This document shows positions 9,747 through 27,530 of a stretch of DNA of 64,000 bases, piece after piece (the stretch's first letter is position 1; every line of letters starts with the position of its first letter). A program made the position numbers and the translations under genes. The notes beneath the pieces were generated by a model that ran no database searches, was not told the origin of the DNA, and saw nothing but the letters and a program-made list of their open reading frames with translations. Source of the stretch: Sphingomonadales bacterium RIFCSPLOWO2_12_FULL_63_15 (GTDB lineage Bacteria > Pseudomonadota > Alphaproteobacteria > Sphingomonadales > Sphingomonadaceae). Where the stretch lies: assembly GCA_001829085.1 (NCBI GenBank), contig MIAK01000058.1:29930-93929 (forward strand), written 5' to 3'.

Positions 9747-9783
9747 AGTTGCCCAGCCCTCTGACTATGCCCGCATAACCACT

Positions 9784-9902
9784 CCGTTCGTGCTGAGTAG
9801 GGGCTGAGCGAAGTCGAAGACCCGTATCGAAGCATCATGCCCAGCGTCTGATCCTTCGATACGCCATTTCGACTTCGCTCAATGGCTACTCAGGACGAAC
9901 GG
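9784..9902. repeat. 119-bp nested palindromic element of the CCGTTCG...TGAGCGAAGTCGAA family
   Basis: Left arm CCGTTCG-TGC-TGAG-TAG-GGGC-TGAGCGAAGTCGAA-GACC-CGTA-TCGAA-GCA; right arm (reverse complement) CCGTTCG-TCC-TGAG-TAG-CCAT-TGAGCGAAGTCGAA-ATGG-CGTA-TCGAA-GGA. Confidence 0.9.
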
Positions 9903-9946
9903 AGTGGGGGGCGGATCGTCACATACTAACGCCCCTCTACATCAGC

Positions 9947-12874: not shown

Positions 12875-12912
12875 AAAAGGGCGCCGGGGCAGATGCTTCC
12901 GGCGCCCTTTTT
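12875..12912 (+). terminator. Rho-independent terminator after rplT
   Basis: AAAAGGGCGCCGG / CCGGCGCCCTTTTT stem followed by a T tract. Confidence 0.85.
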
Positions 12913-12934: not shown

Positions 12935-13031
12935 CCGTTCGCCCTGAGCGAAGTCGAAGGGCATCACCGAACGGAGTGAGGTGCCTTCGCTTCGCTCAGG
13001 CGGGGGCTTCGACTTCGCTCAGCCCGAACGG
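12935..13031. repeat. 97-bp four-hairpin palindromic element, copy 1
   Basis: CCGTTCG CCCTGAGCGAAGTCGAAGGG ... GGCTTCGACTTCGCTCAGCC CGAACGG; same length and layout as 19285-19381 and 27434-27530. Confidence 0.92.
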
Positions 13032-19268: not shown

Positions 19269-19284
19269 CGGCGCAACTCAGTTT

Positions 19285-19381
19285 CCGTTCGGGCTGAGCG
19301 AAGTCGAAGCCTTCCACTGAACGCAGTGAAGTGCCTCGCCTCCGCTCGGCATGGCCCTTCGACTTCGCTCAGGGTGAACGG
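19285..19381. repeat. 97-bp four-hairpin palindromic element, copy 2
   Basis: CCGTTCG GGCTGAGCGAAGTCGAAGCC ... CCCTTCGACTTCGCTCAGGG TGAACGG. Confidence 0.92.
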
Positions 19382-21097: not shown

Positions 21098-21331
21098 TCA
21101 CAAATCAACCCCCGCCGCGATCGCCTCCAGCTTGCGGATGCGTTCCTTGAGGTCGGCGACCTCGATGCGCGCGACCGCCGATGGCGGCGCGGCGTCGTCG
21201 GCATGGCGGGTCAGTTCGGCGCGCTTGAGCGCCAGCCAGCCGTCCCAGCCGCGCAAGGCCGCCACCGCGATGATCGCCACGCCCGCCAGGGTGGTCAGGG
21301 CCATGGCCAGATAAAGATAGGGGTCCTGCAT
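21098..21331 (-). CDS. Small membrane protein, PspB-like (TM + LKERIRKLE coiled coil)
   Basis: 77 aa; GGAGG RBS; last gene of the psp run. Confidence 0.75.
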   Translation of the reverse strand: MQDPYLYLAMALTTLAGVAIIAVAALRGWDGWLALKRAELTRHADDAAPPSAVARIEVADLKERIRKLEAIAAGVDL

Positions 21332-27433: not shown

Positions 27434-27530
27434 CCGTTCGCCCTGAGCGAAGTCGAAGGGCTCGACCGACCGAAGGGAGGTCACTTCGCTTCGCTCAGTG
27501 AACGGCTTCGACTTCGCTCAGCCCGAACGG
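27434..27530. repeat. 97-bp four-hairpin palindromic element, copy 3 (between tolQ and tolR)
   Basis: CCGTTCG CCCTGAGCGAAGTCGAAGGG ... GGCTTCGACTTCGCTCAGCC CGAACGG. Confidence 0.92.

Follow-up and report, generated by a model that had tools for sequence, protein, structure and literature searches.

Four-hairpin REP-like repeats of a Sphingobium-type genome and their possible handling as single-stranded DNA

We propose that three 97-bp elements in a 64,000-nucleotide stretch of a Sphingomonadales genome (contig MIAK01000058.1; the whole stretch is referred to here as the window) are non-autonomous Sphingobium repeats of the REP/REPIN type (REP, repetitive extragenic palindrome; REPIN, REP doublet forming hairpins) that are handled as single-stranded DNA by a HuH-type enzyme, and we give this statement as a whole a probability of about 0.5. 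It is highly probable that the elements are REP/REPIN-like composites of four co-varying hairpins, and their handling as single-stranded DNA by a HuH-type enzyme is put forward tentatively.

The three copies align without gaps and each is laid out as 7+20+3+19+21+20+7, in the order CCGTTCG, a 20-nt hairpin, a 3-nt linker, a 19-nt hairpin, an 18-nt hairpin with a 3-nt linker, a further 20-nt hairpin and CGAACGG. Both the coordinates and this layout reproduce those of an earlier, sequence-only reading of the window. The copies and their modules are as follows.

12935..13031, plus strand: copy 1, CCC/GGG arm first, between rplT (with the rplT terminator) and a LysE-type gene
12942..12961, plus strand: copy 1 module 1, CCCT-GA-GC-GAA-G(T)C-GA-AGGG (hairpin scan and stem covariation)
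12965..12983, plus strand: copy 1 module 2, CACC-GA-AC-GGA-GT-GA-GGTG (hairpin scan and stem covariation)
12984..13001, minus strand: copy 1 module 3, (G)CCT-GA-GC-GAA-GC-GA-AGG(C) on the bottom strand (hairpin scan and stem covariation)
13005..13024, minus strand: copy 1 module 4, GGCT-GA-GC-GAA-G(T)C-GA-AGCC on the bottom strand (hairpin scan and stem covariation)
19285..19381, minus strand: copy 2, reversed relative to copies 1 and 3 when orientation is set by the CCC arm
19292-19311 (plus), 19315-19333 (plus), 19333-19351 (minus), 19355-19374 (minus): copy 2 modules (hairpin scan)
27434..27530, plus strand: copy 3, within the tolQ-tolR operon
27441-27460 (plus), 27464-27482 (plus), 27483-27500 (minus), 27504-27523 (minus): copy 3 modules (hairpin scan)

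The 14-mer TGAGCGAAGTCGAA has eight exact occurrences in the window, which form four inverted pairs with members 49 nt apart, one of the pairs belonging to a longer relative described below. With up to two mismatches the window holds nine matches versus 0.46 expected, and none of 100 shuffles reaches nine. A generic hairpin scan for the pattern of a 3-bp stem, GA, 2 bp, a 3-5-nt loop, 2 bp, GA and the returning stem finds 17 hairpins in the window versus 3.4 ± 1.7 in shuffles. Twelve of the 17 coincide exactly with the modules of the 97-bp copies, four per copy on strands +,+,-,-, so that the earlier description of four hairpins of one build, two per strand, is recovered in full and far above the shuffled level.

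Relatives were gathered by two collection scans, one of genomes and one of metagenomes, and the larger sample comprises 152 distinct elements, 111 of which were aligned after a filter that required an interior GA...GA and TC...TC (111 of 121 elements passed). The 14-mers and tags were fixed by the search patterns and only the Ns and the interior are informative for covariation. Across the 111 aligned elements, 97.2% of the cells in the four local hairpins are paired; 14 pairs show changes on both sides, compensatory cells number 344 and the covariation score is 0.272 versus 0.093 when shuffled (0/500 reach 0.272) and at most 0.064 with slid partners. Under energy models of DNA and RNA alike, whichever strand is taken, each copy folds as a single long hairpin in which a 2x2 mismatch separates 7 bp from 16 bp. 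The variable positions of that long hairpin are unpaired in 84-85 of the 111 elements, with four pairs changed on both sides and 21 compensatory cells, and its score is 0.007 versus 0.009 when shuffled and at most 0.005 with slid partners. The covariation model on these elements thus supports four local hairpins and, with them, the earlier claim that the stem changes are compensatory and the elements coded by structure.

The pairs that close the 14-mer tell the same story over a much wider range. Among 257 distinct units from many phyla in the matches listed, the three closing pairs are Watson-Crick in 98, 93, and 95%, respectively, and CG, GC, AT, and TA all occur. In 126 dimers the local pairing stands at 5.69/6 versus 3.74/6 for long-range pairing; 53 of these dimers form all six local pairs with at most 4/6 of the long-range ones, the reverse case is never seen and long-range pairing is never above local pairing. 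The conserved object is the unit hairpin, not the long hairpin preferred by energy models. The two sides of an element also differ, as one outer arm is CCC/GGG and its counterpart GGC/GCC in 74 of ~100 classifiable elements, so that in the long hairpin CC faces CC and GG faces GG, and two inner hairpins with an identical stem are found in 3 of the 111 elements versus 11.6 expected (P about 0.001). Differing arms and differing inner hairpins would favor the unit hairpins and prevent a perfect long palindrome.

Sequence and length are conserved less strictly than the window alone had suggested. A length of exactly 97 bp holds for the three window copies, and the wider family ranges from 95 to 104 bp, with 98 bp as the mode (31 elements), followed by 97 bp (21) and 99 bp (18). 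The GA/GA pair, which had been called invariant, is near-invariant, the dinucleotides being 96-100% conserved in part owing to the inclusion filter. The invariance ascribed to the C-GNA-G triloop was overstated. When one bulged nucleotide or a third clamp pair is tolerated, module 2 keeps a GNA triloop in 76% of cases and module 3 in 83%, and other tri- or tetraloops make up the remainder. The stems of the inner modules are dependably 3 bp, and a fourth pair is formed in about half of the sequences. Outside the elements, the 7-nt flanks of the 111 aligned sequences are G-poor upstream and C-poor downstream and are mirror-symmetric, e.g., ccacct-CCGTTCG…CGAACGG-aggtgg, a pattern that reflects a target preference or else a degenerate continuation of the inverted repeat.

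The 97-bp elements belong, as a subfamily, to a very large REP-like family that crosses phyla and lies near the head-to-head dimers of CGTC-tagged REPs. Its unit, a variable stem together with the identical 14-mer, is present, among the matches listed, in Sphingomonas, Sphingobium, Henriciella, Hyphomonas, Hymenobacter, Flavobacterium, Dyadobacter and Capnocytophaga, and also in Rickettsiales-like metagenome-assembled genomes, Thermomicrobiales, Chthoniobacter and Ignavibacteriaceae. Hence the letter-identical 14-nt top extends, within those matches, over Alphaproteobacteria, Bacteroidota, Chloroflexota-like bacteria, Verrucomicrobiota, Ignavibacteria and phage contigs. The spacers between inverted units are 31 to 60 nt across the family, and every clade has a 5' tag of its own, as follows.

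CCGTTCG: Sphingobium-type elements
CGTCAT and TGTCAT: Hymenobacter and Flavobacterium, respectively
GCTCAT: Hyphomonadaceae
CGCTGGT: Rickettsiales-like metagenome-assembled genomes
GTAG: the type of the fourth window element

This fourth element, which the sequence-only reading had missed, is located in the window as follows.

9784..9902, no strand given: 119-bp relative, inverted 14-mers at 9805-9818 (plus) and 9868-9881 (minus), 49 nt apart

Its inverted repeat reaches 9780-9906, GTAG precedes each of its hairpins, its center is a single GTATCGAAG...CTTCGATAC stem and it is wrapped in an additional outer arm, CCGTTCG-TGC-TGAGTAG / CTACTCA-GGA-CGAACGG. The same type is found at loci L006, L021, L048, L105, L114, L131, L174, L178, L217 and L240. 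Viral contigs of IMG/VR also hold many units, which are mostly single. The tailed-phage contig 3300038435_000085 (IMG/VR; L154, L167, L181), which encodes a major head protein, protease, terminase, portal, tape measure and endolysin, has at least eight single units, all on one strand. Tandem direct arrays of units (…TGAGCGAAGTCGAAggtcTGAGCGAAGTCGAAggtcTGATCGAAGTCGAA…) are seen in two further viral loci, at about 6377-6440 of L237 and about 5170-5260 of L231 (minus-strand coordinates).

A head-to-head REP dimer is an already known sort of object, and the closest published relatives are the CGTC-tagged REPs described by Di Nocera, De Gregorio and Rocco (2013; PMC3733652). These REPs have an unpaired CGTC, TGTC, or CCTC tag at one end and stems of 8-9 bp that are complementary throughout and begin with A-T pairs, with 4-5-nt loops and a CCA tail; most form head-to-head dimers, in many cases heterodimers, and the 20-100-bp spacers may have stem-loops of their own (PMC3733652). 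They are reported from Alphaproteobacteria including Sphingobium chlorophenolicum and Sphingomonas wittichii, from Bacteroidetes and from Rickettsia, and the preference for heterodimers is proposed there to guard against SbcCD-type cleavage (PMC3733652). The present elements share the head-to-head units, the frequent heterodimers, the structured spacers, the taxa and the lack of a transposase found linked to them. Here the short hairpin units of Hymenobacter, Flavobacterium and Hyphomonadaceae have the 5' tags CGTCAT, TGTCAT and GCTCAT, respectively, and those of Sphingobium have CGTTCG. The elements differ from the CGTC REPs in having 3-5 Watson-Crick pairs, a conserved GA/GA, a 2-bp clamp with a bulged T, a GAA loop and no CCA tail, and in a 14-nt top that is identical across phyla, the CGTC families being set apart here from their description in the text alone.

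The elements also resemble REPIN/RAYT systems (RAYT, REP-associated tyrosine transposase; Bertels and Rainey, 2011), including the E. coli REP-BIME (bacterial interspersed mosaic element) and TnpA-REP pair, in being ~100-bp units of two inverted imperfect palindromes that are intergenic and multicopy, lack target-site duplications and persist at orthologous sites in close relatives. Unlike in those systems, no RAYT gene is found beside any unit in the 64-kb window and 3.0 Mb of flanks (about 370 loci), and a hairpin top that is identical across phyla is unlike lineage-specific REPIN-RAYT pairs. GTAG (GT[AG]G), the canonical REP foot, is absent from the 97-bp copies, in which CCGTTCG is followed by the stem, and is present in the fourth element and its relatives.

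A further likeness is to the hairpins CnGAG-CCGC-GA-CC-GTNA-GG-GA-GCGG that flank class-3 HuH-Y1 (TnpA-Y1) genes in Legionella, Acidobacteria and Planctomycetes, with ~600 copies in Solibacter usitatus (Quentin et al., 2018, PMC6006769). These genes, flanked by hairpins of the same build, give the earlier suggestion of a HUH enzyme a published precedent, and the two kinds of hairpin have in common the order stem/GA/2 bp/loop/2 bp/GA/stem, as in CCGC-GA-CC-GTAA-GG-GA-GCGG, and a high copy number (PMC6006769). The class-3 hairpins differ in their sequence, in a GTNA tetraloop in place of the GNA triloop and in a 5' foot, CnGA(G), that is outside the stem. It is a resemblance, and as such the best lead to an enzyme. 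A class-3-type hairpin, GCCGCGACCGTCAGGGAGCG, also forms tandem arrays with a 67-69-nt period at L380:1366-1657 and L419:13159-13450; the array 'spacers' are themselves repeated and these are therefore not CRISPR arrays.

The subterminal hairpins of IS200/IS605 elements and the attC sites of integrons are read as folded single strands in which the structure and the extrahelical bases are conserved, and they move without target-site duplications. Unlike those systems, the elements described here are neither the ends of a transposase-bearing element nor a cassette array beside an integrase. Mini-hairpins of the d(GCGAAGC) type (Hirao and co-workers) and sheared tandem G.A pairs in the context 5'-Y-GA-R-3' (Reid and co-workers) are reportedly unusually stable in DNA. 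In the GA-strand hairpin, written as DNA d(CCCTGAGCGAAGTCGAAGGG), the GC-GAA-GC core and the T-GA-G and C-GA-A steps fit these stable contexts, by which analogy the 20-mers, with their bulged T, may be stable as well. When 13-mers from the arms and from the inner modules were looked for in the literature, the only matches were unrelated primers, and the G.A-interrupted unit, the four-hairpin composite and the top that is identical across phyla are not described in the literature searched.

The genomic positions of the elements indicate gain and loss between species. In the window, which comes from a Sphingobium and whose TolQ is ~90% identical to named Sphingobium proteins, the tolQ-tolR spacer is 139 nt and contains copy 3, which starts 18 nt past the tolQ stop codon, versus 0-35 nt and no element in four Sphingobium relatives. 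A ~95% identical strain retains copy 2 without an indel, and close metagenome strains all carry the elements, the comparison of their contigs with the window being too noisy for empty sites. Together the filled and empty tolQ-tolR sites and the indel-free copy 2 suggest that elements are gained and lost between species and are stable within them, which is the behavior reported for REPINs. The same spacer in S. herbicidovorans (L372:1421-1544) is occupied by a head-to-head dimer of classic CGTC-1-type REPs, with the units CGTCATCCCAGCGAAAGCCGGGATC and, on the opposite strand, CGTTATGCCAGCGGAGGCTGGCATC, which suggests that both kinds of repeat target, or survive in, the same niche. There is no target-site duplication, the counts for each length between 2 and 6 being equal to those in shuffled sequence. 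Nor is there an orientation bias relative to the flanking genes, with 19 elements in the same direction, 22 opposite, 7 in convergent and 4 in divergent settings.

The other elements are placed as follows. Copy 1 starts 23 nt past the intrinsic terminator of rplT, ahead of the LysE-type gene, copy 2 starts 17 nt past the stop codon of an aldose-1-epimerase gene and ends 30 nt before the start of prfC, and the fourth element sits between convergent inositol-monophosphatase and AsmA genes. An intrinsic terminator was considered and rejected, as no T-run follows any of the four elements and a terminator scan flags none of them, although it does flag that of rplT, a textbook example at 12875-12911 with a 15-bp stem and a T-run. 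With copy 1 behind this separate terminator and copy 3 inside an operon, the earlier statement that these are not simple terminators stands. The genome of the window was seen again in groundwater and other metagenomes. Near-identical strains (L121 versus L122 and L124) differ by a 77-aa open reading frame (ORF) just downstream of prfC, at about 21100-21330 of the window. The assembly graphs of several public runs break exactly at the element arms (contigs over 19282-19314 and 27440-27520 of the window), and many contigs end in the same 30-mer, as a high-copy repeat would lead one to expect.

The building block of these repeats is a hairpin unit with a freely variable 3-5-bp closing stem, above which two G/A-over-G/A positions stand in a Y-GA-R context, which favors sheared tandem G.A pairs in DNA, and the top consists of a 2-bp clamp and, in most cases, a GNA triloop, with one extrahelical T added in the outer units. 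Two outer units with the invariant TGAGCGAAGTCGAA are arranged head to head, one per strand and each preceded by the CCGTTCG tag, and two looser units of the same build occupy the spacer between them. In the mechanism that we consider most likely, the units would fold when the DNA is single-stranded, at the replication fork or during repair, where a trans-acting, structure-specific HuH-Y1 enzyme of the RAYT or IS200-like kind could recognize the hairpin top and the 5' tag, and would excise and insert the head-to-head dimer without target-site duplication.

Several results weigh against this proposal. A search of the window and of 3.0 Mb flanking about 370 loci, by HuH-Y motif regular expressions and by jackhmmer with possibly imperfect queries for IS200 TnpA and the E. 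coli RAYT, found no Y1/HuH ORF bar one unrelated IS200, about 4 kb from a unit in the viral locus L223. Near the 71 viral-contig loci of the class-3-type hairpin there was likewise no Y1 ORF in a search of the flanks by motif and jackhmmer that was made without a class-3 protein query. The genes bracketed by elements, which the sequence-only reading had expected to lead to the enzyme, are housekeeping genes; the ORFs between two elements encode MeaB, an aspartoacylase-like protein, an Arg-tRNA-protein transferase, MipA and L25 or belong to no family. Clustering of the ORFs at 120 loci returned generic families alone (e.g., SDR, histidine kinase, tRNA synthetase, ABC transporter). The CGTC REPs themselves 'apparently lack a dedicated transposase' (PMC3733652). 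The nearest-neighbor DNA energy is ~-33 kcal/mol for the long hairpin versus -12 to -16 for local hairpins only, from a model that takes no account of sheared G.A pairs and GNA loops. At pairs 2-4 of the inner modules the ratio of G.T to A.C on the GA strand is 58:23 raw but only 25:17 after stem de-duplication. Elements are also found in RNA-derived contigs, and in the tailed phage the single units sit in short gaps behind genes, among them the gap just 3' of the major head gene, a placement that suits a role in RNA equally well.

The hairpins could instead function in RNA, folding as they are transcribed and shielding the upstream mRNA from 3' exonucleases or tuning operon expression, with mobility secondary or past. 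Such mRNA protection and expression tuning are described for E. coli REPs, and co-transcriptional folding would account for the conservation of local rather than long-range pairs. Copies that begin 17-18 nt past stop codons, one of them within tolQ-tolR, and settings that are co-directional (41) or convergent (7) rather than divergent (4) fit this explanation, as do the phage units placed right after genes and a bias of the viral single units relative to gene direction (29 antisense and 9 sense, eight of them from one phage). Metatranscriptome contigs cover copy 2, one of them running from the upstream gene through the copy, and the elements are thus probably transcribed, although these assembled contigs show presence but not ends or processing. 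However, on the mRNA-sense strand G.U is not significantly above A.C (18:12), and with random orientation any transcript has two 'GA' modules and two complementary 'UC' modules, so that half of the modules would have U.C/C.U mismatches in place of GA/GA. There is also no match to an Rfam family: at the gathering score the window has none and 18 loci from other phyla have nothing but a tRNA, while copy 1 at E up to 10 gives only chance miRNA and snoRNA models. Gain and loss between species together with an identical 14-mer across phyla look more mobile than locally regulatory, and on balance we consider a function in RNA rather unlikely. The orientation independent of transcription and the two of four modules that would appear in each transcript as U.C/C.U mismatches lead us to lean, mildly, to DNA rather than RNA as the folded molecule. 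By eye, a hammerhead was rejected as the CUGA...GAA core is without G8/A9 and a properly placed stem II, a K-turn or K-loop as there is no 3-nt bulge and a tRNA-like T-arm (TTCGACT) as there is no matching stem.

Two explanations in which the elements act as duplex DNA are less probable still. They might be binding sites for a host protein, nucleoid-associated or gyrase/IHF-like as for the BIMEs of E. coli, with the inverted 14-mers as half-sites, and both the fixed 49-nt spacing of these 14-mers in all four window elements and the conservation of the 14-mer sequence itself are in keeping with this. However, the spacing varies from 31 to 60 nt in the family, single units are common in viral contigs and the compensatory stem changes beside the 14-mers have no role in duplex binding, which makes such sites very unlikely. 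The elements could instead be ordinary miniature inverted-repeat transposable elements, the terminal inverted repeats of which are bound as duplex by the DDE transposase of an insertion sequence elsewhere; their terminal inverted repeats, ~100-bp size, copy number and intergenic placement are of that kind. The best-conserved part, though, is internal, 10 nt in from the ends, the arms mismatch each other yet each self-pairs and no transposase was observed in the flanks. Given also that target-site duplication counts are no higher than in the shuffled control, an element of the DDE type was rejected and we regard it as extremely unlikely.

Few non-coding features of bacterial genomes are as common as REP-type repeats, and in practical terms the repeats described here yield recurrent spurious ORFs in annotation and fragment sphingomonad metagenome assemblies, the contigs of which stop at the arms. 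The large CGTC-type branch in Alphaproteobacteria and Bacteroidota is without a known mobilizing enzyme or function, and a handle on these orphan REPs is now offered by the 14-nt top shared across phyla, the covariation that points to the unit hairpin, the filled and empty site in an essential operon and the likeness to hairpins of the rare class-3 HuH-Y1 genes. Since an identical top is combined with a co-varying stem and no known transposase is adjacent, the 14-nt top may mark an unrecognized and widespread enzyme-hairpin system, based on a new HuH clade, another structure-specific nuclease or recombinase, or a conserved host factor. We regard this as unlikely, but if true, an enzyme-hairpin system that acts on G.A-sheared DNA hairpins would explain the 'orphan' CGTC-type REPs in general.

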